Virus record (IMG/VR): IMGVR_UViG_3300046171_000008
Location: 1-54,923 of that record
Strand: one strand, 5' to 3'
Source of the DNA: a virus
Lineage: Duplodnaviria; Caudoviricetes
DNA: 54,923 nt
Shown: piece after piece, positions 3,525-54,923 of the stretch
How the letters are laid out: every line of letters starts with the position of its first letter
Numbering within the stretch: the first letter of the stretch is position 1
Made by a program: the position numbers and the translations under genes
Notes under the pieces: generated by a model
Told to the model about the DNA's origin: nothing
The model's input: the letters and a program-made list of their open reading frames with translations, nothing else
The model's database searches: none

Positions 3525-3883
3525 TGCCAGTACTACAATCAGGCTCAAAGTTTCGTACCGAAGTCGTGTCGTTGTCCACAACGAACAAGACGAATGTGTA
3601 TACTGTACCTGCAAACTTTTCTTCACACTTGGAAAATTTGTTTGTAAGTAATAACCACACAGGTAACGTAACTTTGAGCCTACACCTTTTTCATGCAGAT
3701 GATAATACAGAGTATGACTTACTGACTACACATGCTATTTCAGGTGGTTCTTATGAGTCTATCTTTACTGTAGACAGACCACTGTATTTACACGCAGGTG
3801 ACATCATTAAATGCACAGCGGATACAGCAAGCAAGCTAGTTGTTACCACTGCATGTGAAGAATTTTTTGACCCAGCGAGATAG
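3524..3883 (+). CDS. Small beta-rich virion-type protein, likely paralogue of 19863..20192
   Basis: VYTVPA...VSN...LYLHAGDIIK pattern shared with 19863..20192. Confidence 0.65.
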   Translation: MPVLQSGSKFRTEVVSLSTTNKTNVYTVPANFSSHLENLFVSNNHTGNVTLSLHLFHADDNTEYDLLTTHAISGGSYESIFTVDRPLYLHAGDIIKCTADTASKLVVTTACEEFFDPAR

Positions 3884-3893
3884 GAGACAGGAG

Positions 3894-4172
3894 ATGAACC
3901 GTGTCACTAAAAAACCAGCCGCTAAAAAGAAAACCACACAAGCTAGAACGAAAACGAAACAGACTAGAACGGTTAAACTTGCGGCGGGTGGTGCGCCAAA
4001 GAGCAAAAGCAGAGTTAATGAAGCTGGCAACTATACTAAGCCCGGAATGAGGAAGCAACAGTTTAACCGCATTAAGGCTGGTGGCAAAGGCGGCGCACCC
4101 GGACAGTGGTCGGCGAGAAAAGCCCAGATGCTTGCCAAGGCTTACAAGTCAGCAGGTGGTGGCTACAAATGA
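3894..4172 (+). CDS. DUF5872-like N-terminal half (GQWSARKAQ)
   Basis: NYTKP...KGG.PGQWSARKAQMLAKAYKSAGGGY. Confidence 0.65.
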   Translation: MNRVTKKPAAKKKTTQARTKTKQTRTVKLAAGGAPKSKSRVNEAGNYTKPGMRKQQFNRIKAGGKGGAPGQWSARKAQMLAKAYKSAGGGYK

Positions 4173-4365: not shown

Positions 4366-5057
4366 TGGACCCGATTAGTGCAATGGCAACAGCATCAGCA
4401 GCGTTTGGTGCTATCAAAAAAGGCTTTCAAGTAGGTCGTGATATTGAATCAATGGCTTCTGACTTGTCACGCTGGATGGGCGCAATGTCCGACTTGGACA
4501 TGTTGGAGAAGGAAGCCAAGAACCCGCCTATCTTCAAGAAGTTATTTGCTGGTAAGTCTGTAGAACAAGAAGCTATAGAAACATTTGCTGCAAAGCAAAA
4601 GGCTCAAACACAACGCTACGAGTTACAGCAGTGGATTGGCATGACTATGGGTAGGTCCAAGTGGGATGAACTCGTGCGTATGGAAGGGTCCATCCGTAAG
4701 CAACGCCAAGAAACACTATATAAACAAAGGCAACGTAGACGTAAGTTTGTTGAAATTGTGGCATGGATATTAATGATACTGCTTGCTTCAGGTCTACTGT
4801 ATGGATTCATATTATTTCTTAAAGGTCTTGCAGCTAATGCAAGCCCAGAGTATGTAGTATGTAGACTACAAGGATGCCAGACCATAGATGGGGAGAGGCT
4901 GTGCATATATCACGGTGCTAACAATACAGTGGATAATGTTTGGTTAGATACTAGCGAATACTTTCCAAAAGAAATACAATGTAAATATGACCCAAAGAAT
5001 GAAAAGCCACCTAGTTTACGTGATACATTTAAAGCTATAGAAAAATCGAGGAAGTAA
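4365..5057 (+). CDS. Membrane protein with C-terminal Cys-rich domain
   Basis: 230 aa; TM segment after RRRRK; 4 Cys in the C-terminal domain. Confidence 0.7.
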   Translation: MDPISAMATASAAFGAIKKGFQVGRDIESMASDLSRWMGAMSDLDMLEKEAKNPPIFKKLFAGKSVEQEAIETFAAKQKAQTQRYELQQWIGMTMGRSKWDELVRMEGSIRKQRQETLYKQRQRRRKFVEIVAWILMILLASGLLYGFILFLKGLAANASPEYVVCRLQGCQTIDGERLCIYHGANNTVDNVWLDTSEYFPKEIQCKYDPKNEKPPSLRDTFKAIEKSRK

Positions 5058-5296
5058 TGAAGAAGCCACAGCAAAGCCTTAAAAACTGGACAGCGCAGAA
5101 GTGGCGCACTAAATCAGGAAAGCCATCTGCAAAGACAGGTGAAAGGTATTTACCTGATGCTGCAATAAAATCCTTGACAAGTGCGGAGTATGCTGCTACA
5201 ACTAAGGCAAAGAGAAAAGGTAAAGCAGCAGGTAAACAATTTGTTAAACAGCCAAAAACTATTGCTAAGAAGACCGCTAAGTTTCGGAGAGGCTAA
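5057..5296 (+). CDS. DUF5872-like C-terminal half (WT.QKW...ERYLP...KQFV)
   Basis: SLKNWTAQKWRTKSG...ERYLP...GKQFVKQP. Confidence 0.65.
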   Translation: MKKPQQSLKNWTAQKWRTKSGKPSAKTGERYLPDAAIKSLTSAEYAATTKAKRKGKAAGKQFVKQPKTIAKKTAKFRRG

Positions 5297-6431: not shown

Positions 6432-6798
6432 ACAGCTAACAGCAAAACAACAAGTATTTTTGAATGCGCTTTTCGATGAAGCAGGAGGTAGTGTAATCTT
6501 AGCTAAGAAGATTGCAGGTTACGCTGACACAAGTTCTACATCTGAAATTGTTAAAGGATTGAAAGAAGAAATACTAGAAGCCACACAGCTATATATGGCA
6601 CGTAATGCACCACAGGCTGCAGTTGCTATGGCAGGTGCGTTGATGGACCCGACTGAACTTGGCATTCGTGATAAGATGTCTGCCGCTAAAGAACTGCTTG
6701 ACCGTACTGGTCTGGTAAAGACTGAGAAGATGCAAGTAGAAGCATCGGGCGGTGTAATGCTTATGCCACCTAAAGCTGTCGTAGAGGATGATGACTAA
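6424..6798 (+). CDS. Terminase small subunit (probable)
   Basis: LTAKQQ.FL HTH start, AGY, AAKELLDRTG; upstream of TerL. Confidence 0.7.
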   Translation: MARQLTAKQQVFLNALFDEAGGSVILAKKIAGYADTSSTSEIVKGLKEEILEATQLYMARNAPQAAVAMAGALMDPTELGIRDKMSAAKELLDRTGLVKTEKMQVEASGGVMLMPPKAVVEDDD

Positions 6799-7295
6799 TG
6801 ACAAACCCATTTAAAGCCCGTACAGAAGGAACTAAAGACAAACCACTGTCTCCTTATGAAAAAAAGTTAAAAAAACTAAAACAAAAAAATAAACAAAAAA
6901 CTGAAGACGCTAATTTCAGTGTATCAGCAGGAAAGTTTGGCGATAAAAGTAGTACTTTAAGTGATATTGCTAATAAACTTGGTATTACATTAAAGTCTTT
7001 AAAAAAAGAAAATCCACAAATAAAAGACTTAAATAAAATATCAAAAAATCAAAAAATTAATGTTCCCCTACGTAGGCAAACTTTTTTTGAGAAATACATA
7101 GCTGGCCCTAAAACAAAACCATCCACTCGTGAAGTAGTAACAGGCAAAGATAAAAAAGAACAACTGGCTGTAAAAAAAGGTGCAGAAGGTAAAGTCTATA
7201 AAGGTATGTCTAAAAAAGATATGGCTGCAATAACACTTGACTATCGTGTAGGTGGTATGGTAAAATCTACAGTAGACAATAGAAAAAAGAAATGA
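6798..7295 (+). CDS. Basic LysM-domain protein
   Basis: TLSDIANKLGITLKSLKKENPQIKDLNKISKNQKINVP is a LysM pattern. Confidence 0.75.
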   Translation: MTNPFKARTEGTKDKPLSPYEKKLKKLKQKNKQKTEDANFSVSAGKFGDKSSTLSDIANKLGITLKSLKKENPQIKDLNKISKNQKINVPLRRQTFFEKYIAGPKTKPSTREVVTGKDKKEQLAVKKGAEGKVYKGMSKKDMAAITLDYRVGGMVKSTVDNRKKK

Positions 7296-9141: not shown

Positions 9142-11289
9142 ATGGATGAAGATGATATTATGATTGAAGACGATGCAATTGCATTGGAAGACACAGATGA
9201 CTCTGTTGTTGAAGATGCAGAAATTGCTTCAATTATTCCATTTATTAACGAGAAGTATCAGCGTTCAGAAGACTACCGCGAACAAGACGAAGACCGTTGG
9301 CTACGTGCTTATCGTAACTACCGTGGCTTGTATGGTCCAGACGTGCAGTTTACTGAGGCAGAGAAGTCTCGTGTATTTATCAAGGTAACAAAGACAAAGA
9401 CGCTGGCAGCTTACGGACAGATTGTAGATGTCCTGTTTGCAAATCAGCGTTTTCCTTTATCTGTAGACCCAACTGAACTGCCAGAAGGCGTAGTTGAGGA
9501 TGTTAGCTTTGACCCACAAGAGCCAGAGCAACTGCGTGGAGAAACTGCGTTGTCTACTAGCCCGTATGGTTTTGCTGGTGATGGCAATGATTTGGCACCC
9601 GGCGCAACAGCACAGTCTCTGCAAGAGAAGCTGGGTGTAGTACAAAATAAACTAGAGCCTGTACAGGAAAAACTTAAAGAAGGTCCGGGTAAGACACCTA
9701 CAGCAATTACATTTAGTCCTGCACAAATTGCTGCAAAGAAAATGCAAAAGAAAATCCATGACCAGCTTGAGGAGTCAGGTGCTAGTAAGCACATGCGTAA
9801 TTCTGCATTTGAGATGGCGTTGTTTGGCACAGGCGTTATGAAGGGTCCATTTGCTGTAGACAAAGAGTATCCTAATTGGAATGATGATGGTGAGTATGAT
9901 CCTAGATTCAAAACCGTTCCGCAAGTACAGCATGTATCTGTTTGGAACTTTTATCCTGACCCTGATGCGAATAGCATGGATGAAGCGCAGTACGTAATTG
10001 AACGGCATAAGATGTCACGTACACAGTTGCGCGGTTTGAAAAAGCGTCCATATTTTCGTGGACAAGTTATTGATGAGGTAATTCAAATTGGTGAAAACTA
10101 TACTAAAAAATATTGGGAAGATGATTTATCCGATTATGCTCCTGAGTCCTCTATTGACCGCTTTGAGGTACTTGAATATTGGGGTACAGTGGATATTGAC
10201 ATGCTTGAAGAGCAAGATATCGAAATACCGGAAGAACTAAAAGACTTTGATGAACTACAAGCAAACGTATGGATTTGTAATGATAAACTTATTCGTATGG
10301 TTCTGAACCCATTCAAGCCTAGTAAAATTCCGTATCATGCTGCGCCATATGAACTGAACCCATACTCATTTTTTGGAGTGGGTATTGCAGAAAACATGGA
10401 CGACACGCAGACATTGATGAATGGTTTCATGCGTATGGCTGTGGACAATGCCGTACTGTCAGGCAATTTGATTATGGAACTAGATGAAACTAATCTGGTT
10501 CCGGGTCAAGACCTGTCACTATATCCGGGTAAGGTATTCCGTAGGCAGGGCGGCGCACCGGGTCAAGCTATCTTTGGCACAAAGTTTCCTAACGTGTCTA
10601 GTGAGAACATGATGCTGTTTGATAAGGCACGTCAGCTATCAGATGAAAGTACAGGCTTGCCTAGTTTTGCTCATGGGCAGACAGGTGTTACAGGTGTAGG
10701 GCGTACTGCGTCAGGCATCTCTATGCTTATGGGTGCTGCCAGTGGTAGCATTAAGACTGTCGTTAAGAACGTAGACGATTATTTGCTGCGTCCTTTGGGT
10801 GAAGGCTTCTTCCGTTTTAATATGCAGTTTGACTTTGACCCAGAAATTAAGGGTGACTTAGAAGTTAAGGCACGTGGAACAGAAAGCCTGATGGCTAATG
10901 AAGTACGTAGCCAACGCCTGATGCAGTTCTTGCAGGTAGCAAGCAGCCCAGCACTTGCACCTTTTGCTAAGTTCCAGTATGTAATCCGCGAGATTGCATC
11001 TTCATTGGACTTGGACCCCGACAAAGTAACCAACAATATGGATGAAGCTGCTCTGCAAGCAGAGATTATGAAAGGCTTCCAAGCCCCTGCACAGCCAGTA
11101 GGACCAGAAGGCGCAGCACCAGCGGGTGCAAACCCAATGGACCCAACAGGAGCAGGTGGTGGTAATATAGGTACAGGACAAGTTCCTATGCCGGGTGAAC
11201 AAGGATTTAGTGCAAATGGACAAACAGCAGATACTCAGCCGCCTCAAGCCGCTGGTGGGCAACAACCGCCAATGGGAGGCGTTCAATAG
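9142..11289 (+). CDS. Portal protein
   Basis: 715 aa directly after TerL; ALFGTG, FYPDP, GRTASGISML motifs of P22-like podoviral portals. Confidence 0.88.
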   Translation: MDEDDIMIEDDAIALEDTDDSVVEDAEIASIIPFINEKYQRSEDYREQDEDRWLRAYRNYRGLYGPDVQFTEAEKSRVFIKVTKTKTLAAYGQIVDVLFANQRFPLSVDPTELPEGVVEDVSFDPQEPEQLRGETALSTSPYGFAGDGNDLAPGATAQSLQEKLGVVQNKLEPVQEKLKEGPGKTPTAITFSPAQIAAKKMQKKIHDQLEESGASKHMRNSAFEMALFGTGVMKGPFAVDKEYPNWNDDGEYDPRFKTVPQVQHVSVWNFYPDPDANSMDEAQYVIERHKMSRTQLRGLKKRPYFRGQVIDEVIQIGENYTKKYWEDDLSDYAPESSIDRFEVLEYWGTVDIDMLEEQDIEIPEELKDFDELQANVWICNDKLIRMVLNPFKPSKIPYHAAPYELNPYSFFGVGIAENMDDTQTLMNGFMRMAVDNAVLSGNLIMELDETNLVPGQDLSLYPGKVFRRQGGAPGQAIFGTKFPNVSSENMMLFDKARQLSDESTGLPSFAHGQTGVTGVGRTASGISMLMGAASGSIKTVVKNVDDYLLRPLGEGFFRFNMQFDFDPEIKGDLEVKARGTESLMANEVRSQRLMQFLQVASSPALAPFAKFQYVIREIASSLDLDPDKVTNNMDEAALQAEIMKGFQAPAQPVGPEGAAPAGANPMDPTGAGGGNIGTGQVPMPGEQGFSANGQTADTQPPQAAGGQQPPMGGVQ

Positions 11290-11431
11290 TTACTTAGATG
11301 ATGCAATTATGCAACACCATAAAGTAATGGAACAATCGACAGACACTGTTATGTTACACAGGCAACAAGGTGCCATAGCAGTTTTACGTAAACTAAAGCA
11401 ACTTAGGGATGAAATTAATGGCTCTGGATAA
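11216..11431 (+). CDS. Small conserved protein after portal
   Basis: HRQQGAIAVLRKL motif typical of portal-adjacent genes. Confidence 0.7.
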   Translation: MDKQQILSRLKPLVGNNRQWEAFNSYLDDAIMQHHKVMEQSTDTVMLHRQQGAIAVLRKLKQLRDEINGSG

Positions 11432-12983
11432 ACAAATGGAAATGTTTGATGACGGTGGTCTTATGGACGAAGGCGGCACAGTAGACCCTGTATCTGGTAA
11501 TGACGTGCCACCCGGCTCTACTCAAGAAGAAGTACGAGATGACATTCCCGCACAGCTTAGTGAAGGTGAATTTGTATTCCCTGCTGACGTAGTGCGTTAC
11601 ATTGGTCTAGGCAACTTGATGCGTATGCGTCAGGAAGCTAAGATGGGCCTAAAGTTAATGGATCAAATGGGCCAGATGGGCAATAGCGAAGAAGCTACTA
11701 TGCCAGATGACTTGCCATTTGATATTAATGATCTTGACATGGAAGACGAAATAGACGATAATAACGAATTAGAAATGCAAGTAGGTGGTTTTGTACAGCC
11801 TACACAACAACAACAACAGATGGGTATCAGTGGATATCAGCAAGCTGCAGCACCAACAACAGGAGTAGCAGCAGTGCCACAGCAAGCTGCATCACAGCAA
11901 TACGTACAACCTGTACAGCCTGTGCAAGCAGCAGTACCAACAATGCAAGCGTATAAACCAGAGGAAGTACCTACATTCCAGCAGACCATCGGTGACGATG
12001 CATTTGGAACTTATGATGAATTACGTCAATATCGCAATGAAGCAGGTAACATTCTTAATGTACCATTCCGTAATGGTCAGCCTATCAGCCCAATCCCAGA
12101 AGGCTACACATTTGTAGACCCAGAAGAGACTGCCACAGAAGAGGTAACAACTACACCTACAACGCCACAGACTACTACTGTACGTGAAGAAGGTGGAGAT
12201 GACGAAGCACGGCAACGCCGCGAGGAAGAAATGTATGGTCCGGGTGGTGGTAGACTTGGAGTAAAAGGAAAAACTTATGGTATTTCTTTTGATGGTGTAG
12301 GACTATTAGAAGGAAGGGGTATGTTAACTGGTTTAGCTTTGAGTGGAGAAATTCCTGATAAGTATGCTACTAGCGTATCTGTAAATATAAAACGTGGGGA
12401 TGACGAATTTGCAGTCAGGGGTGATGCTTATAATGAATTGAAAGAAGTAATTGAAGACTCTGGTGCAAATTCTCCTGCTGCTGAAAATAAATTGGCTGAG
12501 TTGCGTAGGCGATCTAATGCAATTAAAGAAGCAAAACGTAAAGCGCAAGAAGAGTTTGATAGGCTTGCTAAACTAAAAGAAAACGAAGAAGAACGTAAAC
12601 GCACAAAAGTACAGCCTTCATCGGATGACCCCGGAGGTAAAGGACCGTTTGGTACCGGATATACTTACGACCCTAAATCCGTAAAAGAAACCACAGACTA
12701 TGTAGAATCAGGATACCAAGAAGCCTCTGGAGGTGGAGGAGGCGGTTTTGGAGGTGGTAGCCCATCCTCTAGTTCAAGTTCTTCTAGCAGCAGTTCATCA
12801 GGTAGTAGTAAATCTTCTAGTTCGGGTTCATCCAGTGGTGGTTCATCTAAATCTAGTGGAGGCAGCTACGGCGCAAAAGACTCAACTGGGGGTTCTAGAC
12901 GATTCGATGAAGGTGGTTTAGCATCTAAACCTAAACCCAAAACTAAAAAGATGAAGCGTGGTGGATTAGCTTCTAAAAAATAA
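11409..12983 (+). CDS. Head-module protein with N-terminal GEFV domain and five xxGG motifs; candidate maturation protease or cargo adaptor
   Basis: DDIPAQLSEGEFVFPADVVRYIGLGNL; lies between portal and scaffold; Q-rich and S/G-rich low-complexity tracts; function is inference. Confidence 0.55.
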   Translation: MKLMALDKQMEMFDDGGLMDEGGTVDPVSGNDVPPGSTQEEVRDDIPAQLSEGEFVFPADVVRYIGLGNLMRMRQEAKMGLKLMDQMGQMGNSEEATMPDDLPFDINDLDMEDEIDDNNELEMQVGGFVQPTQQQQQMGISGYQQAAAPTTGVAAVPQQAASQQYVQPVQPVQAAVPTMQAYKPEEVPTFQQTIGDDAFGTYDELRQYRNEAGNILNVPFRNGQPISPIPEGYTFVDPEETATEEVTTTPTTPQTTTVREEGGDDEARQRREEEMYGPGGGRLGVKGKTYGISFDGVGLLEGRGMLTGLALSGEIPDKYATSVSVNIKRGDDEFAVRGDAYNELKEVIEDSGANSPAAENKLAELRRRSNAIKEAKRKAQEEFDRLAKLKENEEERKRTKVQPSSDDPGGKGPFGTGYTYDPKSVKETTDYVESGYQEASGGGGGGFGGGSPSSSSSSSSSSSSGSSKSSSSGSSSGGSSKSSGGSYGAKDSTGGSRRFDEGGLASKPKPKTKKMKRGGLASKK

Positions 12984-13055: not shown

Positions 13056-13922
13056 ATGAACGATACAATCATGGCAGAAGAAATGAAGACTACGCCAAAG
13101 GCGGCATTTGTTAATAAACCTTACACGCAAGAAGAACGAGTTAAGCGCGATGAGGAAGAACTAGAACAGCTAATGAAAGAACGTGATGGTGAAGAAGAAG
13201 CACCAGAGCAAGAAGCTGAACCTACTAGCGCAGAAGAGAAAACATTTAAAAAGCGTTACTCTGACCTACGCCGACATCAACAGAAACAAGCAGAAGAGTT
13301 TAAGTCTGAACTTGCAGAACTAAAGCGTCAGCTTTCGGATGCTACAAAGAAAGAAATGAAACTGCCCAAGTCTGATGAGGACATTGAAGAGTGGGCAAAA
13401 GAATACCCAGACGTAGCAGCTATCGTTGAAACAATTGCAATGAAGAAAGCTAGTGAACAAGCAACTGCACTAGAAGAACGAATCAAAGCAATTGATGAGA
13501 TGCAGAATACCGCAACTAAAGAAAAAGCAGAAGCATCTCTGATGCAGATGCATCCAGATTTCGGCGAGATTCGTGACAGCGATGACTTCCACGAGTGGGC
13601 CGAAGAACAACCTAAGTGGGTACAGGACGCACTGTACGAGAATGATAATGACGCACGGTCAGCAGCACGAGCAATTGACCTCTACAAAGCAGATAGAGGC
13701 ATTGGCAAAAAGTCTAAGAGCAAGAATGATAAGGGTGCAGCAGAGGCAGTTGCGCCGAAAGATAAAAGAAGTAAGCCGCAAACTGATGAGGCTTCCACGT
13801 ATCTGAAAGAGTCAGATGTAGAAAAAATGTCAGCACATGAATACGAGAAACATGCTGATGAGATTATGGATGCAATCCGTAGTGGTAAGTTTATCTACGA
13901 TTTATCTGGTTCTGCACGATAA
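13056..13922 (+). CDS. Capsid scaffolding protein
   Basis: Acidic coiled coil with FKKRYSDLRRH and HPDF...F.EW; upstream of MCP. Confidence 0.75.
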   Translation: MNDTIMAEEMKTTPKAAFVNKPYTQEERVKRDEEELEQLMKERDGEEEAPEQEAEPTSAEEKTFKKRYSDLRRHQQKQAEEFKSELAELKRQLSDATKKEMKLPKSDEDIEEWAKEYPDVAAIVETIAMKKASEQATALEERIKAIDEMQNTATKEKAEASLMQMHPDFGEIRDSDDFHEWAEEQPKWVQDALYENDNDARSAARAIDLYKADRGIGKKSKSKNDKGAAEAVAPKDKRSKPQTDEASTYLKESDVEKMSAHEYEKHADEIMDAIRSGKFIYDLSGSAR

Positions 13923-14164: not shown

Positions 14165-15220
14165 ATGGCTTTCCCAAGAGCACCGGGTTATAACAACTTG
14201 CCGAATGGCAATTTTAGCCCAGTAATTTACTCCAAACAGGTGCAGCTTGCATTCCGCAAGGCCGCTGTTTGTGACGCGATTACGAATAACGACTACTTTG
14301 GTGAAATCGCAAACTTTGGTGATTCAGTTAAAATCATCAAGGAACCCGAAATCACTGTTAAGGCTTACGAGCGTGGTACTACCATTACTCCGCAAGACCT
14401 TGACGATGAAGACTTCACACTGACCGTTGACAAAGCTAACTACTTTGCTTTTAAAGTTGACGACATTGAGGAAGCGCATTCGCACGTAAACTTTGAGTCT
14501 CTCTCAAGCAACCGTGCTGCATACCGTCTTGCTGACCAGTTTGACCAAGATGTTCTTGGCTACCTGTCAGGCTTTAAGCAGTCTGCAATCAGTGGCACAC
14601 CTGACACCGTAAATAACGTAATTAACGGTACTAAGTCAGTTACAACTGCTGGTACTGACGAACTGCTGTCAAGCATGAAGCTGAATGCATCCGACTTCAA
14701 CGCAGGTAATGCTGCTAACTGTGTCGGTCTGAAGCCTCGCGCATCAGAAGCTGTTCCAACTGCTGCTGGTACTACTAACCCACTGACTGTGATTGCACGT
14801 ATGGGTCGTCAACTCGACCTGCAAAACGTGGACTCTCAGGGCCGTTGGTTGGTCATTGACCCAGTGTTCGTTGAACTGCTGAAAGATGAAGACTCACGTT
14901 TGTTTGATTCAGACTTTGGTGGTTCTGGACTTCAGAACGGTTTGATTTTGAATAACCTGCATGGATTTAAAGTCCATGTTTCTAACAACCTGCCTAAAGT
15001 TGGTACTGGTCCTTCCACAACTGGTGGAACCAATGCTAATAACTTTGGTGTGATTGTTGCTGGTCATTCATCTTCAGTCGCTACTGCTGACCAAATCAAC
15101 AAGACTGAAACTTACCGCGACCCGGACAGCTTTGCCGATATCGTCCGTGGTATGCATCTGTATGGCCGCAAGATTCTCCGTCCAGAGGCTCTTGTTAACG
15201 CCAAATACTGTTTGGTTTAA
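14165..15220 (+). CDS. Major capsid protein
   Basis: 351 aa; FSP.IYSK, GDSVKI, F.VDDIE, RDPDSFADIVRG.HLYG.K motifs; strong RBS. Confidence 0.92.
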   Translation: MAFPRAPGYNNLPNGNFSPVIYSKQVQLAFRKAAVCDAITNNDYFGEIANFGDSVKIIKEPEITVKAYERGTTITPQDLDDEDFTLTVDKANYFAFKVDDIEEAHSHVNFESLSSNRAAYRLADQFDQDVLGYLSGFKQSAISGTPDTVNNVINGTKSVTTAGTDELLSSMKLNASDFNAGNAANCVGLKPRASEAVPTAAGTTNPLTVIARMGRQLDLQNVDSQGRWLVIDPVFVELLKDEDSRLFDSDFGGSGLQNGLILNNLHGFKVHVSNNLPKVGTGPSTTGGTNANNFGVIVAGHSSSVATADQINKTETYRDPDSFADIVRGMHLYGRKILRPEALVNAKYCLV

Positions 15221-15774: not shown

Positions 15775-16491
15775 ATGGCATATACTTACCTAGACATTAC
15801 TAATGAAGTACTTGCTCGTATGAACGAGGTATCTCTTACTGCAGCCAATTTTGCTACAGCTAGGGGTTTTCAAGTACAATGTCAAAACGCTGTTAATGAT
15901 GCTATCAACTATATTAATCAACGTGAGTTTGGCTGGCCCTTTACACATGATACTGAAACGCAGACATTAGTAGCTGGTCAAACACGTTATACTATTCCAA
16001 CGGATACACAGTCAATAGACTATGACACATTTAGAATTAGTAAAGATGATACTCTGGGTGTATCAGGGATTACACTACGTATTTTAGACTACAAAGAATA
16101 TACACAAAAATATATTGACCAAGAAACTACATCTGATGTAGGTGCAGTTCCTATCTACGTATTCCGCACACCAGATAATAACTACGGCTTGTACCCATAT
16201 CCTGATAAAGCCTACGAATTAAAGTACGAATATTATAAAAAGCCTACTCCATTGTCGGCAGCAACAGATGCACCAACTGTACCTGAACAGTACCGACAGG
16301 TAATTGTAGATGGTGCAACTGCATACGCTTATCAGTATCGTGGAGAGGCACAGCAGTATGGCATCAACTTTGCACGTTTTGAGGAAGGCATCAAGCAGAT
16401 GCAGACAATCTTGCTTAATCGTGCCGACTACATCAGGTCTACGTATATTCCATACTCACAAAGGTACGGTGCTGGCGCGGGTGGATTTTAG
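15775..16491 (+). CDS. Tail adaptor / tubular protein A-like
   Basis: YLDITNEVL.R, WPF, YPYPDKAY, VPEQY pattern; position after the head genes. Confidence 0.7.
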   Translation: MAYTYLDITNEVLARMNEVSLTAANFATARGFQVQCQNAVNDAINYINQREFGWPFTHDTETQTLVAGQTRYTIPTDTQSIDYDTFRISKDDTLGVSGITLRILDYKEYTQKYIDQETTSDVGAVPIYVFRTPDNNYGLYPYPDKAYELKYEYYKKPTPLSAATDAPTVPEQYRQVIVDGATAYAYQYRGEAQQYGINFARFEEGIKQMQTILLNRADYIRSTYIPYSQRYGAGAGGF

Positions 16492-16499
16492 AGGTTTAA

Positions 16500-18014
16500 A
16501 TGGCAGATGAATCTGGCCTCAGTCCTTATGTGTTTGCTTGTGAAGGTGGGTTAGTTCTTGACCAGCCAACCTTTAAGATGCAACCCGGCATGGCACTTGA
16601 ACTAGAAAACTTTGAACCTGATGTACGTGGTGGCTACCGCCGTATCAATGGCTACATCAAGTGGAACAGCAATATTGTTCCTCAGACAGCTAGTTCATCT
16701 GAAGCAGTGCTTATGTCTGCTTTTTTTCCCGGCAACAATAAAGTAATTGCTGCACGTGGAGAAAAAGTATTTGAGGCTGGTACATCAGGTAGCTGGACAG
16801 AGATTGACACAGGACGTACTAATGCAAACAGGTATACGTTCTTTAGGTATAACCTAGCTGGCACTGACCATATTATCTGGGCTGATGGTGCAAACCACGC
16901 AACAAAATATGATGGCACAACTGTAACAGATATTAACGCAACAGGCGCACCATCCAATCCAAAGTTTGTTGTAGGTTATAAAAATGCTATGTTCTTTGCA
17001 GGGCATAGTGCCAATAAAGAAGAAATTGTATTTACGGCACCTTTTACTGACAATGACTTTAACACAGCCAATGGCGCAGGTTCCATACGAGTAGACAGCA
17101 CAATCACTGGATTGTTTCCGTTTCGTGATGAATTGTACATCTTCTGTGAAGAACGTATCTTTAGACTTGTAGGCAACACTGTTGCAGACTTTCAGATGCA
17201 ACCTGTTACTAGAGACATTGGTTGTCTAAATAACTTTACCATCCAAGAACTAGCTGGTGATATTATTTTTCTTGGGCGAGATGGACTTAGAACAGTAGCC
17301 GCGACTGAACGTATTAATGACGTTGAACTTGGCACAATTACGGCACCCATTAAGGAACTCTTTGATGGTGTAACAGACGTAGATGAGTTTGTAAGCGTAG
17401 TTGTACCCGGCAAGACACAGTATCGTCTGTTCAGGGTCAATAGGTCAGAAGATACACAGGCCACAACAAAAGGTGTTATTGCTGTACGTAAACAACAAGG
17501 TTACGAGTTTGCTACAACTATAGGCATACAGCCAGCTTGTACAGATTATAATACAGTACAGGGTGACATTTTTGTACTGCACGGTGGCTACGATGGTTAT
17601 ATCTATCGCCAAGAACAGGGTAACACATTTGATGGCACTACAATTATAGGCCGTTATCGTTCACCTGATATGACTATGGGAGATGCTGGCATACGTAAAA
17701 ACTTTCAGCGAGTAATTATTAACTACGCACCTACAGGCGCACTTAACTCTGACTTGTTTCTACGATATGACTATGAATCTCCAGATGCAGCAAGACCTGA
17801 TGCATACCCGTTTGACAGTTCAACAGTAGTGGCATTGTATGGAACGTCAGTATACGGAACAGCAACATACGGTGGTCAGTCAAACCCATTGGTACGACAG
17901 CCAGTAGAAGGTAGCGGTTTTGCTGTAGCAATGCGGGTGGTTGATAATGATATATCACTACCCTACACACTAAAAGGTTTTCAGCTAGAATTTGACGCAG
18001 GAGCAAGAAGGTAA
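16500..18014 (+). CDS. Tail nozzle / tubular protein B-like
   Basis: 504-aa beta-rich protein; GGL, ENFEP...GGYRRI, DIGC motifs; position after the adaptor. Confidence 0.7.
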   Translation: MADESGLSPYVFACEGGLVLDQPTFKMQPGMALELENFEPDVRGGYRRINGYIKWNSNIVPQTASSSEAVLMSAFFPGNNKVIAARGEKVFEAGTSGSWTEIDTGRTNANRYTFFRYNLAGTDHIIWADGANHATKYDGTTVTDINATGAPSNPKFVVGYKNAMFFAGHSANKEEIVFTAPFTDNDFNTANGAGSIRVDSTITGLFPFRDELYIFCEERIFRLVGNTVADFQMQPVTRDIGCLNNFTIQELAGDIIFLGRDGLRTVAATERINDVELGTITAPIKELFDGVTDVDEFVSVVVPGKTQYRLFRVNRSEDTQATTKGVIAVRKQQGYEFATTIGIQPACTDYNTVQGDIFVLHGGYDGYIYRQEQGNTFDGTTIIGRYRSPDMTMGDAGIRKNFQRVIINYAPTGALNSDLFLRYDYESPDAARPDAYPFDSSTVVALYGTSVYGTATYGGQSNPLVRQPVEGSGFAVAMRVVDNDISLPYTLKGFQLEFDAGARR

Positions 18015-20201: not shown

Positions 20202-21854
20202 ATGGGTTATATCGGCGCAGGTATATCAAGATTTAACACAGCAGATGAACTGACTGTTAGCGGTGATGCTGAGTTCAACGGCAACGCTAACTTTGGCGAC
20301 AGTGACAAGGTTTCTTTTTCTTCTGGAAAACTTGAAATGTACCACGATGGTACAAACGCCTATATTGATGAGACCTATGCTAACGGCACGTTTCTAATCA
20401 GGGGCAATAACATTTCGCTTCAGAAGTACACTGGCGAGACGATGATACAGTGTGTGTCGGACGGTAAAGTTGAGTTGAACTTCAACAACGTGCCGAAGTT
20501 AGAAACCACCTCATCCGGCGTGGATATTACATCCACAGCAACAGCTACAACATTTCAAAGTAATGCAGGAGGTACGTTCACCACTGCATCCGGCAATGAT
20601 TTAAACATTGTGTACCCTGACAGTCGTTCACTGTTTATCAAAGAAGGCTCAACTACTCACGTTACTGTGGATAATGTTGGTAACGTGGGCATCGGCACTG
20701 CGTCTGTAGACAATAAACTGCATTTAGAAAACGCTGGAACCCTGTATCTTCAAATTGAAAACACAAGCACAGCTAATAAATTTTATGTAGGAAACTCTGG
20801 CGGTAGTGCAATTTTGGAATCTACTGGTGCCTACAGTATGAATTTCAAAACTAATGGTAGCGAAGCGTTCCGCGTGGATAGTTCGCAAAACTTGTTAGTT
20901 GGCAAGACGGCATCTGGGATTGCAAACAACGGCATCGAACTCAGAGCAAATAACGATGTTCTGATAACCAAAGACGGTGCTACGGCTTTATATTTGAACC
21001 GCAAATCTAGTGACGGTGAGATAATAGAGTTCAGGAAGGACGGGGCTAATGCTGGTGAAATCGGCGTGGTCAATGGAAACAATTTAATAATTTCCAATAA
21101 TGCCGACAATTCAGGCCTTCAGCTTGGCTCTGGTTCAATAACACCAGCCTATGATGGAGCGGGTCAAGACAATTCTGTTGATTTGGGAAGCAGCAGCACT
21201 CGTTTCAAACACGGTTATTTTGCCAACACTGTCTACACAGCGTCTGTTGCTGGAATTACTGACAACGATACTTACATCAACTTTGCTAACAATAACATAA
21301 TGCAGTTCATCACTGGCGGCAGTGAAAAGGCTAGGTTTGCGGCTGATGGGAACCTATACATCGCCAAGACCAGTGACACTGCAACAGACGTTGGGCTTAC
21401 ATTAAGTGGTGGTGGGTTTATTCGTGCTGTTAGAAATGAAATTTGTGGCGTTTTTAACAGACAGGGTTCTGACGGCACTTTGTTGTCATTCAGTCGTAGT
21501 AATTCTGGAGTAGGGGCAATCAGCGTCACAACATCCGGCACTACCTACAACACAACCTCAGACATAAGACTCAAGCAAGACATTGAACCCCTAGAAGCTA
21601 CTGACAAGCTGATGCAGATGAACCCTGTCAGCTACGCTTGGAAGGCTGACCCAGACGGCCCACGCTCTATGGGCTTTATCGCTCAAGAGATGGCCGATGT
21701 CATGCCCGAAGCTGTAAGCACTGGCGATGACGATGATGCAATGATGAGTATGGATTACGGACGCATCACACCAATACTGGTGTCGGCACTTCAAGATGCT
21801 CACCGCAAGATTGAAGAACTAGCAGCAGAGATTGCTGAATTAAAAGCCAATTAA
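20202..21854 (+). CDS. Tail fibre/spike with C-terminal intramolecular chaperone (peptidase S74)
   Basis: TSDIRLKQDI...GFIAQE...MDYGRITPILVSALQ plus coiled coil. Confidence 0.85.
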   Translation: MGYIGAGISRFNTADELTVSGDAEFNGNANFGDSDKVSFSSGKLEMYHDGTNAYIDETYANGTFLIRGNNISLQKYTGETMIQCVSDGKVELNFNNVPKLETTSSGVDITSTATATTFQSNAGGTFTTASGNDLNIVYPDSRSLFIKEGSTTHVTVDNVGNVGIGTASVDNKLHLENAGTLYLQIENTSTANKFYVGNSGGSAILESTGAYSMNFKTNGSEAFRVDSSQNLLVGKTASGIANNGIELRANNDVLITKDGATALYLNRKSSDGEIIEFRKDGANAGEIGVVNGNNLIISNNADNSGLQLGSGSITPAYDGAGQDNSVDLGSSSTRFKHGYFANTVYTASVAGITDNDTYINFANNNIMQFITGGSEKARFAADGNLYIAKTSDTATDVGLTLSGGGFIRAVRNEICGVFNRQGSDGTLLSFSRSNSGVGAISVTTSGTTYNTTSDIRLKQDIEPLEATDKLMQMNPVSYAWKADPDGPRSMGFIAQEMADVMPEAVSTGDDDDAMMSMDYGRITPILVSALQDAHRKIEELAAEIAELKAN

Positions 21855-29009: not shown

Positions 29010-29225
29010 ATGCTAACTAATCCTACACCTATATTACATCAGAACTTGTCACTGGCTATGAAGAATATGCCAGAAGAAACTCCTATGACTAAAAATACTT
29101 TGATGGGGCCACCTAAAAAACAGGTGACAAAGGCAAAAGAAGATGATATACTACAACCTTCAAGACGTGTAGCTTCTTACATTGAAACAATTCAAAAGAA
29201 ACGTGAGGAAATTAAGAATGGCTGA
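29010..29225 (+). CDS. Hypothetical protein
   Basis: ORF fills the gap between internal virion genes. Confidence 0.55.
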   Translation: MLTNPTPILHQNLSLAMKNMPEETPMTKNTLMGPPKKQVTKAKEDDILQPSRRVASYIETIQKKREEIKNG

Positions 29226-29742
29226 CATGATGATGCAACCTAAACTTGATGCACCTATTCCGGGTCATTCCTTAACTAAGGAACTTGGCTCACGTCCTTG
29301 GCAGCAACCTGCACAGTACACAACTGTAGAGGATGCGCTGGACTATTATATTCCACGACTTGAATCTGATGAAGTTACAAGTCAACTTCTTGATGTACTT
29401 GAAATGGGTATTCCTGTAACTACAGTAGCTAATACAATGCAGCTTGGTAGTGTCATGGAAGGCAAGCACAGTGTTGATGTAGGTATGCTTATATTGCCTG
29501 TACTGGTTGAGTTGATTATGTTAATTGCTGATAGCGCAGGTGTTGAATATACTACTGGTCTTGAAAAAGATAAAGAAATTCGTGGTTCTCTAGTAGATTT
29601 AGCAGTTAGTAAATTTAAAGAAGAAAAAGATAAAACAAAAAATAATGATGCTAGTGAAGGTGATGGTGGTAAATTTGTTGCCGACAGCATGAAGCAAGCT
29701 GCCGAAGATCGTGTCGGTGGATTAATGTCTAGGGGTACATAA
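29218..29742 (+). CDS. Conserved virion-module protein
   Basis: APIPG.SLT.ELG.RPWQQP motif; ends VGGLMSRGT. Confidence 0.7.
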   Translation: MADMMMQPKLDAPIPGHSLTKELGSRPWQQPAQYTTVEDALDYYIPRLESDEVTSQLLDVLEMGIPVTTVANTMQLGSVMEGKHSVDVGMLILPVLVELIMLIADSAGVEYTTGLEKDKEIRGSLVDLAVSKFKEEKDKTKNNDASEGDGGKFVADSMKQAAEDRVGGLMSRGT

Positions 29743-31850
29743 TGTCTCTTTTTGGTTTAGGTTCATTTGGTGAAGGTTTTGTTACAGGCTTTGCTACGGA
29801 GGCAAACGAAGCACTAAAAAAGAGTGTTAATCGTATTAATACTCGTGTAGACAAACTTAAACAATTTCAAGTAGAACGTGCTATTAAAGAGCAAGACAAA
29901 CGTGCTTCAGAAATAGAGGAACACAAAGAGGCACTAGCAGAAGCATACGCATTATTTGGGGGTGACGAAAATGCAGAGCAAGCTATTGCTTATGCTGGCG
30001 GTCTTCTTAAAGAACGTGGTGGTCTTGCTGCATTTAAAAGTAGGATTGCTGAACTGCGTGAAGCAAAAGATAACGATGTAGATATAAATTCATACTTTGG
30101 ACGTGCGGAAACAGATGCACCTTATAATGCTACATTAGATGATATAGCAGAAGCTGCAGTAGGTGGACGTTCTACCTTGGCAAGTGATTATCGTTTACCT
30201 AAAGGCATGGGTGATGATAGCAGTTTAATAGGTACAGTACTTGGTAAAAAGATAGATGTAGTCGGTATGGCTATGGAGCAAGCAGGTGAAGAAATTCGTG
30301 CGTTATACGGTGCGGATGTAGACACACTTGTTAAACTGCCTACAATCACATTCAAAGCTGAAGAGTTTTCTTTACGTGATAAAAGTCCTGCTGAAAGACT
30401 AGATTACGCAAATAAAAAACTAGCGTTACCACGTGTGCAAGCAGATGAAGCCCTTAAATCAAAATATACAAGTATGCGAGATGAACAAGAGTTAGCGGTT
30501 ATCAATACTAAAGATGAAGCAGCTACTATTGAAATTCTTGATGCCCAAATTAATCGTGCTGAACCGGGTTCTGATGAAGAAGCTACGCTTCTCTCTCAAC
30601 GTAAAAACGTAAATAGAAATATGCAATTAAAAGCTGTTGCAGATCAGCCTGTAAAAGAACTTAATTTAAGAATTGAGTATGCAATGGCAGATGCTCTTGA
30701 AGAGTCTGAACGTACAGGTAATCCAATTGATCGTAGTCAAGTTGAAATACTAGAACAAGAACTGGCTTCTCTTACAGGAGATGTACCAAGTGTTCAGAGT
30801 GAAATTGATGAAGAAAGAGAAGAACTCCGGCGTAGGTCTGACCCATCATACACAGGAACAGATAAACTTACAATAGGTTCCGATGAGTACAATAACGAAC
30901 TTGCTCGTATTGAAGCTAGACAAAATGCACACGATTCAGTAAAGCCTATAAAACCTTTAAACCCTAGATCAGTAGATGTGTTTCAAGATACTTTTCTTAA
31001 CGCTATTGCAAGAGCAGAAATAGATGCAATAAAGCAGTTTTCGGATACAGAACAAACTGTTTATCAAGGTATAAAGGATTTAGCTAAAACCCCTGCAGAA
31101 CTAGAACGCCTACGACAAAAAGGGCAAGATGATGCAAAAGCAGGTAATAACGCTTTAAATGAAAGACTTGCTATTTATGACAAAGTTGCTGCTGCATCTC
31201 GTTCTGTAACGAATACCGTTATAGCCCGTAGTTTAAATAACTATAATAAAAAAGATCACGCTGAAGCATGGATTGCTGCAGCAAATCTTGGATACATTGA
31301 TCCTGCTGACGCAACAAGTACTCCGACTGCCACTGATACCTCTGCACAGACTGCTGCTGCATTGGGTGTTGAAATAACTGCAGGTGCTGCCACAGCAGCA
31401 GACGTTAAAAGGCAGTTTCCCGATACTGTGGAAGGTGCTAATGCCATGATTAATCAGTTGTATAAAAATAAATTGAAGGTAGAAGATGCGATTAAAATGG
31501 CTAAAGAGGACGGGTATAGTCCTGAGTTTTTGGCTGTTCTTGAGCAAGAGAAAGGCCAAGATCCTGCAGGGGTCGCACAATTGGTTATTCAAGACACGGA
31601 TATAGACGTTAATGATGAAGAGGTTCGTCAAATAGCTGAAGCAAAACGTATTATAGGGGATGTTGCAGGATTTGATTCAAAAGAAATTCGTGCTATTGCA
31701 AAAGAACTAGGCGTAACTCCAGAAAAAGCTGCGGAACTTCATGCAGCAGCAACAGAGGAAATAAAAGAGGCGCGTAAAGAAAACCGTGTGTCTAGGAGAA
31801 GTGGAAGAACTAACAATCGCTATACTGGTGGATTAATGTCGAGGAAGTAG
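29742..31850 (+). CDS. Internal virion (ejection) protein
   Basis: 702-aa helical protein; SFGEGFVTGFA start; ends TGGLMSRK. Confidence 0.65.
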   Translation: MSLFGLGSFGEGFVTGFATEANEALKKSVNRINTRVDKLKQFQVERAIKEQDKRASEIEEHKEALAEAYALFGGDENAEQAIAYAGGLLKERGGLAAFKSRIAELREAKDNDVDINSYFGRAETDAPYNATLDDIAEAAVGGRSTLASDYRLPKGMGDDSSLIGTVLGKKIDVVGMAMEQAGEEIRALYGADVDTLVKLPTITFKAEEFSLRDKSPAERLDYANKKLALPRVQADEALKSKYTSMRDEQELAVINTKDEAATIEILDAQINRAEPGSDEEATLLSQRKNVNRNMQLKAVADQPVKELNLRIEYAMADALEESERTGNPIDRSQVEILEQELASLTGDVPSVQSEIDEEREELRRRSDPSYTGTDKLTIGSDEYNNELARIEARQNAHDSVKPIKPLNPRSVDVFQDTFLNAIARAEIDAIKQFSDTEQTVYQGIKDLAKTPAELERLRQKGQDDAKAGNNALNERLAIYDKVAAASRSVTNTVIARSLNNYNKKDHAEAWIAAANLGYIDPADATSTPTATDTSAQTAAALGVEITAGAATAADVKRQFPDTVEGANAMINQLYKNKLKVEDAIKMAKEDGYSPEFLAVLEQEKGQDPAGVAQLVIQDTDIDVNDEEVRQIAEAKRIIGDVAGFDSKEIRAIAKELGVTPEKAAELHAAATEEIKEARKENRVSRRSGRTNNRYTGGLMSRK

Positions 31851-54674: not shown

Positions 54675-54923
54675 CACCGCCGTTATGTTATAACATTACA
54701 TTCTTACAGTCTGGCATTCATGTTGCGGGTGGATATCGTCAAAGCATAGGTGATGCCTTGCCGGTATTGCCGCGCATGGGGTGAAAATTGGCGGTTTTGC
54801 TAGGGTTTTGAGGCATTTTATTTGCTGGCAACGCCAGACATGCCTTTGATTTTTGCCAATTCTGGCAAATCTATCACGACATGCGACCCCGGCAGGGGCC
54901 ACACCCCCGTAGGTAGTACGTAT
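54675..54923. repeat. Right direct terminal repeat (249 bp)
   Basis: Identical to 1..249. Confidence 0.95.

Follow-up and report, generated by a model that had tools for sequence, protein, structure and literature searches.

Introduction

Why does a protein encoded beside the portal gene of a short-tailed phage begin with a module shared with tail tape measure proteins? The question is raised by bases 11472–11654 of IMG/VR record IMGVR_UViG_3300046171_000008, a tailed virus (Duplodnaviria; Caudoviricetes) whose 54,923 nucleotides were analyzed over their whole length and are called the window here. These bases encode residues 22–82, with the motif GEFV at residues 53–56, of a 524-amino-acid (aa) protein whose gene (11409–12983, + strand) lies between the portal gene and a scaffold-like gene. 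A first-pass annotation, made from the letters alone, had likened the stretch to the C-terminal region of the lambda tape measure protein gpH. It had proposed that the domain stands alone in the slot of a prohead protease and acts in trans, as protease or reader, on Gly-Gly (GG) tags carried by many proteins. The analysis described here leads elsewhere. With confidence somewhat above even, the stretch is read as part of a tape-measure-type joint or docking module that heads a portal-adjacent, probably ejected, carrier protein. The module is common, is not in Pfam, and is unstudied; it is not the new enzyme proposed earlier.

A conserved module at the head of the protein

The open reading frame (ORF) starts MKLMALDKQMEMFDDGGLMDEGGTVDPVSGNDVPPGSTQEEVRDDIPAQLSEGEFVFPADVVRYIGLGNLMRMRQEAK, and its N-terminus reads FDDGG/MDEGG...DDIPAQLSEGEFVFPADVVRYIGLGNLMRMR. 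Both this sequence and the position of the gene, checked against the ORF list, Pfam, and PHROGs, are as first described. Since many homologues begin MALDKQ, the true start may be the ATG at 11418. The stretch is a conserved coding domain and not a chance likeness: residues 1–115 were matched by 6782 of 6825 candidates of similar length (E≤0.001), and residues 8–90 by 1375 of 1411 longer candidates (E≤0.01). In an alignment of 45 full-length relatives (A6), the invariant columns fall in residues 10–127 and 502–523. Residues 10–109 are almost wholly invariant, as is the GGLASK of the tail.

From the N-terminus, the protein consists of the GG-GEFV module, an acidic stretch, a linker rich in Gln, Pro, Ala, and Thr, a conserved middle block, a Lys/Glu-rich coiled-coil-like stretch, a Ser/Gly low-complexity run, and a basic tail. 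The tail (FDEGGLASKPKPKTKKMKRGGLASKK, 12903–12980, + strand) carries two GG tags of the protein's own. The module fills the first ~110–130 residues and is recognized once in the window (profile E 2.5e-24); a second copy was not found there. An Atlas search with residues 130–440 returned nothing usable.

The module opens with two upstream joint motifs, FDDGG-L and MDEGG-T (residues 13–23; 11445–11477, + strand). Its core, RDDIPAQLSEGEFVFPADVVRYIGLGNLMRMRQ (residues 43–75; 11535–11633, + strand), is the part common to tape measures according to hhalign, BLASTP to gpH, and a profile search of the PDB. The downstream joint motif MQVGGFV (residues 123–129; 11775–11795, + strand), in which G126 and G127 are invariant in the 45 relatives, ends it. 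Both sides thus carry joints, FDDGGL and MDEGGT upstream and MQVGGF downstream, that are invariant in all 45. The core has the form D-x-[IV]-P-A-x-L-[ST]-x-G-E-[FY]-V, followed by A-x-x-[VT] and a helix end L-x-x-[ILM]-[N/R].

Kinship with tape measure proteins

The proposed likeness to gpH holds, and the sequence quoted for it agrees with the lambda record. The same arrangement is found at gpH 738–785, where the protein reads HFATGGFTGTGGKYEPAGIVHRGEFVFTKEATSRIGVGNLYRLMRGYATGG...MRDGGLFSGGGR and also ...KFHFATGGFTGTGGKYEPAGIVHRGEFVFTKEATSRIGVGNLYRLMRGYATGGYV...MRDGGLFSGGGR. In gpH as in the window, a hydrophobic-x-x-GG, GEFV-x-x-x-A, G-x-G-N-L, and x-x-GG follow one another in the same order. 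BLASTP aligned gpH 754–774 with residues 53–73 of the window protein at 11 of 21 identities (E 3e-4 in a single pairwise comparison). The module stretch of gpH falls outside both gpH Pfam domains (TMP_2, 54–256; Tape_meas_lam_C, 627–701), and no Pfam family covers the module in either protein. In the NCBIfam family TIGR01541 (tape_meas_lam_C), the corresponding part of gpH lies at profile positions of about 252–315. A module protein is matched by the family over profile positions 252–315, whereas the window domain was matched by 0 families at E≤1. The two proteins also differ. gpH is the tape measure of a long tail, holds a single copy ~100 aa from its C-terminus, and lacks the D-x-IPA-x-LS piece. 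The window protein belongs to a short-tailed phage, lacks a tape measure body, and has the module at its N-terminus.

The kinship extends well beyond lambda. A tblastn search with the 52-aa core found 89 phage records. Among the 60 rows listed, 10 were of the type of Puniceispirillum phage HMO-2011, and 40 of the 50 others lay in genes annotated as tape measures. The remaining listed rows were two Burkholderia phage 'gp15' genes at the same place, hypothetical proteins of pelagiphages (three), Rhizobium phages (three), and a Vibrio phage (one), and one unannotated row. When the module at the end of a Nitrincola tape measure was used as query, 513 phage records were found at E≤1e-3, nearly all of them tape measures. 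Seven sequences (the window, HMO-2011 gp49, lambda, the Nitrincola, Burkholderia, and Gordonia tape measures, and pelagiphage HTVC027P gp82) could be aligned on one plan, F-x-T-GG ... D-x-IPA-x-LS-x-GEFV-x-x-A-x-A-V-x-x-x-G-L-G-x-L ... GG-x-V. Two PHROG tape measure families matched the module at 3.3e-4 and 9.3e-3. The tblastn, PHROG, and lambda results are free of any bias from a pattern taken from the window.

Such a pattern, DNA encoding IPA-x-L-S-x-GEFV, was also used to search viral contigs. It found at least 120 stretches, of which 80 were translated and classed by eye: 8 HMO-type, 20 tape-measure-type (...FASGGLVTGPGTSTSDSIPARLSAGEFV...FAAGGLV), 27 proteins of 230–500 aa with ~100 aa past the motif, and 25 ending 43–66 aa past it. 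Comparison of the HMO-type profile (A3) with the tape measure profile (A4), whose rows were partly chosen with this pattern, gave an hhalign probability of 97.3% (E 2.1e-11) over 33 columns, corresponding to residues 43–75. A further profile, A2, was made of 68 segments from the pattern-found stretches. Against 177,635 PDB sequences it had three matches, all of them tape measures: Douge gp16 (two copies), JBD30 gp46, and lambda gpH (754–780).

Douge gp16 (8ZDO; mycobacteriophage) and JBD30 gp46 (8RK3; Pseudomonas phage), matched at profile E-values of 2.2e-20 and 1e-09, are giant tape measures. In this class of protein the module stands at joints beside muralytic cassettes, much as lysozyme cargo stands beside it in relatives of the window protein. 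Giant tape measures hold 2–11 copies, in contrast to the one of the window protein, and read TSD[ST][IV]PAML[ST]xGEFVVN and ...LLxxIN where the window has RDDIPAQLSEGEFVFP and ...LMRMR.

In a library of 1.84 billion proteins, A2 found 43,682 cluster representatives at E≤1e-3 and 15,409 at 1e-10. The best 150 of the 43,682 are 274–7872 aa long (median 3422) with 2–11 module copies each (median 5). From the final copy to the C-terminus the median distance is 110 aa, and in 109 of these 150 it is at most 150 aa, as in lambda. Pfam was run on ten of the best proteins: four had TMP_3 or PhageMin_Tail, five had SLT, Phage_lysozyme, LysM, or weak NlpC/P60, and three had no match. The module repeatedly borders the enzyme cassettes. 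P0249 has a module at 1529–1596 followed by SLT at 1599–1704, and P0253 a module at 1969–2033 followed by SLT at 2046–2142. In P0283 a lysozyme (141–260) stands between modules at 74–126 and 304–365, and in P0350 a module (880–947) stands between SLT (798–872) and LysM (949–992).

The window protein as a whole was also considered as a tail tape measure. This identification was rejected: TMP_2, TMP_3, and PhageMin_Tail have no Pfam match in the 524-aa protein, the genome is that of a podophage, and the gene sits between portal and scaffold, not between tail chaperone and tail-tip genes as in long-tailed phages.

Anatomy and predicted fold

Column frequencies were taken from the 709 copies in the best 150 proteins. 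The upstream joint is [FY]-A-x-G(72%)-G(97%)-x-[VIL], and the core is D(99%)-[TS]-[VI]-P(92%)-A(96%)-M-L(96%)-[TS]-x-G(100%)-E(97%)-F(83%)-V(96%). The helix region follows with L(90%)-x-x-[ILM]-N(97%), and the downstream joint is [FLY]-A-x-G(93%)-G(89%)-x-V. The first-pass annotation was right to see the GG motifs and the GEFV core as one module: in the 709 copies, the window, and the pattern-found sequences, a GG motif stands on either side of the core. The conserved polar residues are an Asp (99%), a Glu (97%), and an Asn (97%); no Ser, Cys, or His is conserved across the copies. Lambda lacks the Asp, and both lambda and the window have Arg in place of the Asn.

AlphaFold2, run on the A2 alignment, modeled the window module with a mean pLDDT of 68.7. 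Residues 48–87 (11550–11669, + strand) reached 82–94 and the rest lay below 60. In the confident part, QLSEGEFVFP is strand-like, and two helices follow, the short ADVVRYI and the long LGNLMRMRQEAKMGLKLMDQ. A tape-measure-type copy gave the same picture (mean 63.7; residues 51–80 at 77–88). The predicted ordered part is therefore about 35–40 residues, a strand-like stretch and two helices. In both monomer models the GG flanks fall below 60, unstructured and unpaired with the core, a result that speaks neither for binding nor against it. A structure search of the window model against 48,161 PDB representatives gave no match at Z≥5. The best, at Z 3.1, were single helices, and no fold could be assigned.

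Solved phage structures do not show the module; of the giant tape measures they model the last 33–42 residues. In the lambda structures gpH is modeled at 818–849 (PMC10721106, PMC12617516), in the Douge structure gp16 at 1658–1699 (PMC13033339), and in the JBD30 structure gp46 over its last 33 residues (PMC11445458). The gpH residues that hold the module, within ~690–817, have no resolved density and are part of the cut-off fragment gpHC (PMC12617516). In an AlphaFold-multimer prediction by the authors of the JBD30 structure, gp46 1022–1066 forms a 'hook' that consists of two helices with a short hairpin; their speculation is that the hook serves to anchor the tape measure in the baseplate once a cut at 1066 has been made (PMC11445458). 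This hook falls within the module match at 1002–1090.

Protease or reader of GG tags?

Could the GEFV domain nevertheless be a protease with the Glu as catalyst, or a binding reader of GG peptides, one that works in cis within tape measures and here in trans? Several observations speak for this. The GG motifs and the GEFV core always occur together, and the Glu and Asp are nearly universal in the 709 copies. No other protease was found in the window, and the mechanism by which gpH is cut is still an open question (PMC12617516). Three probable internal virion proteins of the window also end alike, with KRGGLASKK (11409–12983), RVGGLMSRGT (29182–29742), and YTGGLMSRK (29742–31850).

The composition of the module argues against catalysis. 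A catalytic domain would need more than the residues predicted to be ordered. Neither Pfam nor NCBIfam holds a protease family that matches the 524-aa protein or its first 100–115 residues, and the structure search, not decisive by itself, ended at Z 3.1. No Ser, Cys, or His is conserved, the Asp is missing from lambda, and the Asn is missing from both lambda and the window. With prohead maturation proteases (the HK97 gp4 type and the T5 head maturation protease) the module shares a gene position near portal and head genes; unlike them, it has no family match, no domain-sized fold, and no conserved catalytic Ser or His. A LysM-like or AbrB-like module was considered and dropped, as Pfam gave no supporting match. 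Double-glycine leaders (C39) and adenain-type (M/L/I)-x-GG sites were likewise considered and dropped; a search of the window found neither a cysteine protease nor a C39 peptidase.

The argument from gene position had been that maturation proteases usually sit between portal and scaffold and that no other head protease is recognizable. The second half stands: Pfam and PHROGs recognized no maturation protease among 51 window proteins, where the one peptidase-named match was the Peptidase_S74 chaperone of the tail fiber. The argument itself is weak. A phage that has its own scaffold gene, as T7 and P22 do, does not generally need a maturation protease, so the absence of one is expected where a separate scaffold-like gene is present.

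The claim of action in trans fares no better. The domain is embedded, not free: of the 240 listed relatives, whose selection reflects the length windows of the searches, 190 have the module internal with cargo upstream, and in the window it heads a protein of 524 aa. What survives of the idea of a siphovirus module working in cis is that domain and motifs travel together; the idea that it has come to stand alone here does not.

Nor do the tags behave as the partners of a reader. The tail end GG[LM]AS[KR]K occurs in 196 of the 240 listed relatives and KRGGLASKK in 114. HMO-2011, however, keeps the module and lacks the C-terminal tags on gp49, which ends ...LYNGKSV, and gp23, which ends ...GSRYI. 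Of the counterparts of the three tail-peptide proteins, gp24 alone retains a related end (PTGLMARRK), and GG motifs are kept only in gp55 (...EASGGVMLMPP) and gp63 (...AAGGGYK). The 61 window proteins hold 24 instances of the loose pattern [FYMLIVWA]-x-x-GG-[LMFYVIA], against 15.0 ± 3.7 after shuffling (35 of 2000 shuffles reach 24); at C-terminal positions there are 4 against 1.4 (117 of 2000 reach 4). This enrichment is modest. A genome-wide code of GG tags was therefore rejected on the modest enrichment and on the loss of tags from gp49 and gp23. The shared tail peptides of the three internal proteins may be a lineage-specific docking or processing tail.

GG ends also occur where the module does not. 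T7 gp6.7 and gp7.3 are basic, low-complexity proteins with GG loops and ends (...SAFGGKK; ...ARAGGKKSL...SSGGGINI), and the 18–37 kb structural region of T7 holds no GEFV module. Their loops dock on the portal barrel, the gp15 core, and the nozzle (PMC11784390). The likeness to T7 is one of analogy and not of sequence homology. Taken together, the protease or reader has become the least probable of the explanations weighed here.

Are the GG joints cut?

A different role for the GG motifs would be that of maturation sites. The joints would be cut by a host protease or another phage protease, so that ejected proteins are divided into working pieces, and the GEFV core would present the site or hold the stump that is left. 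gpH is cut in a glycine-rich region beside the module, with neither the protease nor the exact site assigned (PMC12617516). T5 pb2 is cut after R1127, as determined by mass spectrometry (PMC10038345). The T5 sequence there is ...FVPR/AEGGMM, with the cut, marked by the slash, two residues ahead of a peptide like a GG joint. A 1973 paper, to go by its title, reportedly concerns a part played by the host in cleaving a T5 tail protein, and is counted on the same side. Modules separate one cassette from the next in giant tape measures, in the relatives they separate cargo from body, and most window tags have an Arg 1–4 residues before the GG.

Against this, none of the GG-GEFV modules has a mapped cut, and pb2 1080–1160 shows no detectable likeness to one. 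In lambda, the estimated size of gpH* puts the cut near residue 710, upstream of FATGG (PMC12617516). The placement of the joints would be expected equally of a recombination seam. The 43-residue resolved 'anchor' that precedes R1127 in pb2 was examined as a degenerate module and rejected (hhalign 0.16%, no BLASTP alignment to lambda, no profile match); the peptide R/AEGGMM is all that pb2 and the module have in common. On balance, cleavage at the joints by another protease is considered unlikely, though it is the strongest of the alternatives.

A bolder form of the idea is a shade less likely again. The module might be a processing cassette, complete in itself, that tape measures share with podophage ejection proteins. 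Once its core has docked or oligomerized in the channel, the conserved Asp/Glu pair or a recruited protease would cut the flanking [FY]-A-x-GG joints. If true, this would account for the maturation of gpH into gpH* and gpHC and for the freeing of enzyme cassettes from giant tape measures and polyvalent carriers. The GG-tagged internal proteins of the window would then be further substrates.

A carrier protein and its relatives

The relatives indicate what kind of protein the module heads. Each of the 240 listed has one module. In 190 of them more than 70 aa precede GEFV, and in 50 the arrangement is window-like (≤70 aa); the median over all 240 is 418 aa. By Pfam, with several matches below the curated cut-off, the cargo ahead of the module includes Phage_lysozyme2 (1.2e-16), LysM, Phage_L5_gp82, ART-PolyVal, LPD23, the metallopeptidase-like DUF6782, and Methyltransf_23. 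In cargo-bearing relatives a third motif, FxEGG or YNKGG, precedes the two upstream joints. The different cargos meet the common body exactly at this first F-x-E-GG or Y-N-K-GG, where similarity among the relatives begins. Two metagenomic relatives, P0125 and P0199, have a weak match to DUF6782, a 'putative metallopeptidase', upstream of the module (E 4–5e-4, below cut-off). If real, the match would be a candidate for an in-cis processing enzyme of the carrier family.

Polyvalent proteins, in which effector domains are strung along a protein encoded among virion genes (Iyer, Burroughs, Anand, de Souza, and Aravind, 2017; PMC5512222), resemble these relatives. Their cargo includes effector-like domains whose Pfam names refer to the class (ART-PolyVal and LPD23), as well as a lysozyme, a methyltransferase, and a metallopeptidase-like domain, on a conserved body. 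Unlike polyvalent proteins, the window protein has no cargo domain recognized by Pfam, nor did Pfam find in it MuF, their usual head-targeting domain. A portal-associated head protein of the MuF/SPP1 gp7 kind was rejected, as Phage_Mu_F had no match at Pfam E≤0.1 and adjacency to the portal is all that is shared. Processing of polyvalent proteins has been ascribed to zincin-like peptidases, and a term search of the same paper found no mention of tape measures (PMC5512222).

The gene context of module proteins in other podophage contigs is similar. A module protein of a second class in locus L151 has a portal gene (phrog_332) upstream and phrog_13678 downstream, and another in locus L102 has phrog_13678 downstream. 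Module proteins of a third class precede phrog_4287, a 'DNA ejection protein', in three of six neighborhoods tested (L092, L116, and HTVC027P gp83); phrog_4287 was not a neighbor in L088, L125, and L099. The portal-adjacent slot, the cargo of the relatives, and the company of phrog_4287 elsewhere are consistent with a protein that is packaged in the virion and ejected.

Might the protein instead be an assembly factor that is never packaged, a helper associated with portal or scaffold in which the module is a shared oligomerization motif? Its gene does lie between the portal and a scaffold-like gene, its middle is coiled-coil-like and of low complexity, and its place in the virion is deduced from context. 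The relatives, however, fuse lysozyme, LysM, ADP-ribosyltransferase-like, and methyltransferase-like cargo to the same body. Such cargo makes sense if it is delivered into the host cell and makes none in a helper left behind. The other homes of the module, tape measures and neighbors of ejection proteins, are likewise ejected proteins. An unpackaged helper is accordingly held to be very unlikely.

The favored reading, a tape-measure-type joint or docking module on a carrier, can be put as follows. Bases 11472–11654 encode the core of a ~110-aa GG-GEFV module that is homologous to the one near the gpH C-terminus and to those of tens of thousands of tape measures. In it, one or more GG joints precede the strand-like D-x-I-P-A-x-L-S-x-G-E-F-V, and after two helices another GG joint closes the module. 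The 524-aa protein is most likely packed in the particle beside the portal and ejected ahead of the DNA. It would be the podophage counterpart of the tip-proximal end of a tape measure and a cargo-less form of a 'polyvalent'-type carrier. The module is probably a structural joint or docking element, not an enzyme, that folds only on oligomerizing or on docking in the portal or tail channel. Its GG flanks would serve as flexible seams at which cargo cassettes are swapped in evolution and at which the chain may be cut. Of all this, the analysis demonstrates the homology, the anatomy of the module, its repeated placement at cassette joints, the varying cargo of relatives, and the gene context, and from these the location in the virion, docking or oligomerization, ejection, and any cutting are inferred.

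Several points weigh against this reading. Both AlphaFold models are of single chains, and their mean confidence is low (68.7 and 63.7). The 'polyvalent' label fits the relatives and not the window protein itself. In the alignments A2, A4, and A5, many rows came from the search with a DNA pattern modeled on the motif of the window, so the invariance of IPA, L, and GEFV in them, and part of the hhalign score, are by construction. A literature search, screened by title and abstract, found no report of virion proteomics for HMO-2011-type phages, and no proteomic or structural datum that places this protein or a homologue of that type in the virion. Finally, an Asp and a Glu kept in almost every copy (99% and 97%) would be compatible with catalysis or metal binding too.

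Genome and neighboring genes

The window is the genome of an HMO-2011-type marine podophage. Bases 1–249 recur exactly at 54675–54923, either as a terminal repeat or because a circular or circularly permuted genome was assembled with overlapping ends, and the genome is therefore complete. The nearest cultured relatives of the 524-aa protein are Puniceispirillum phage HMO-2011 and the Roseobacter CRP phages. Assignment to the podophages follows from portal and adaptor genes of the SU10 type (Pfam) and from a tubular-tail-B-type gene. HMO-2011 gp44 has been listed as tubular tail B by Hardies and co-workers (PMC4819975), and the ORF at 16500–18014 belongs to the same family, with the window-to-gp44 placement made by synteny.

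Directly upstream of the module gene lies the portal gene (9142–11289, + strand; Pfam SU10_portal 2.7e-29, phrog_332 6.9e-87, phrog_1216 5.3e-40). Directly downstream, in the scaffold position, is the gene of a 288-aa acidic coiled-coil protein (13056–13922, + strand; phrog_13678 6.4e-78), followed by the major head protein (14165–15220; phrog_267 1.8e-63) and the adaptor gene (15775–16491). Between the portal and module genes is a small conserved ORF of 78 aa (11195–11431, + strand). Its frame differs from that of the low-complexity 3' portion of the portal gene, with which it overlaps, and it also shares bases with the beginning of the module gene. The ORF resembles HMO-2011 gp50 (...NNRQWEAFN.YLDDAI.QHHKVMEQSTD...LHRQQGAIAVLR.LKQLRDEINGS) and, being conserved with it, is probably a real small gene.

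Other genes of the window deserve mention. Small, very basic, low-complexity proteins rich in Lys, Ala, and Thr are encoded at 1317–2293, 3840–4172, and 5057–5296, 5' of the lysis and terminase genes. Several have GG motifs, for example AMMRGGMANGKVHMYAAGGSV, and their likeness to the T7 gp6.7/gp7.3 type is limited to composition. Just 5' of the terminase genes, a possible wall-binding protein of the particle is encoded at 6798–7295 (+ strand); it is basic, is 165 aa long, contains a single LysM domain (Pfam 2.4e-05), and has YRVGGMVKSTVDNRKKK at its C-terminus. A tail-fiber-like protein (20202–21854, + strand) ends in a Peptidase_S74 intramolecular chaperone domain (3.2e-17).

Implications

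With 43,682 cluster representatives, the module is among the commonest unnamed elements of tailed-phage virion proteins. A literature search found no paper pairing GEFV with 'tape measure', and SDSIPA, LSNGEF, and LSDGEF did not occur in the small part of the matching literature that was inspected. In lambda the module lies in the unresolved stretch of gpH, beside a cut whose site and enzyme are unsettled after forty years. A module of 110 aa and lambda as a genetic system offer tractable objects for experiment.

HMO-2011-type podophages are among the most abundant podophage groups of the ocean. In them, the module at the head of a portal-adjacent protein ties the tip-proximal end of the tape measure to the internal and ejection proteins of short-tailed phages. 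This suggests a common way of holding, swapping, and perhaps releasing the cargo that tailed phages deliver.

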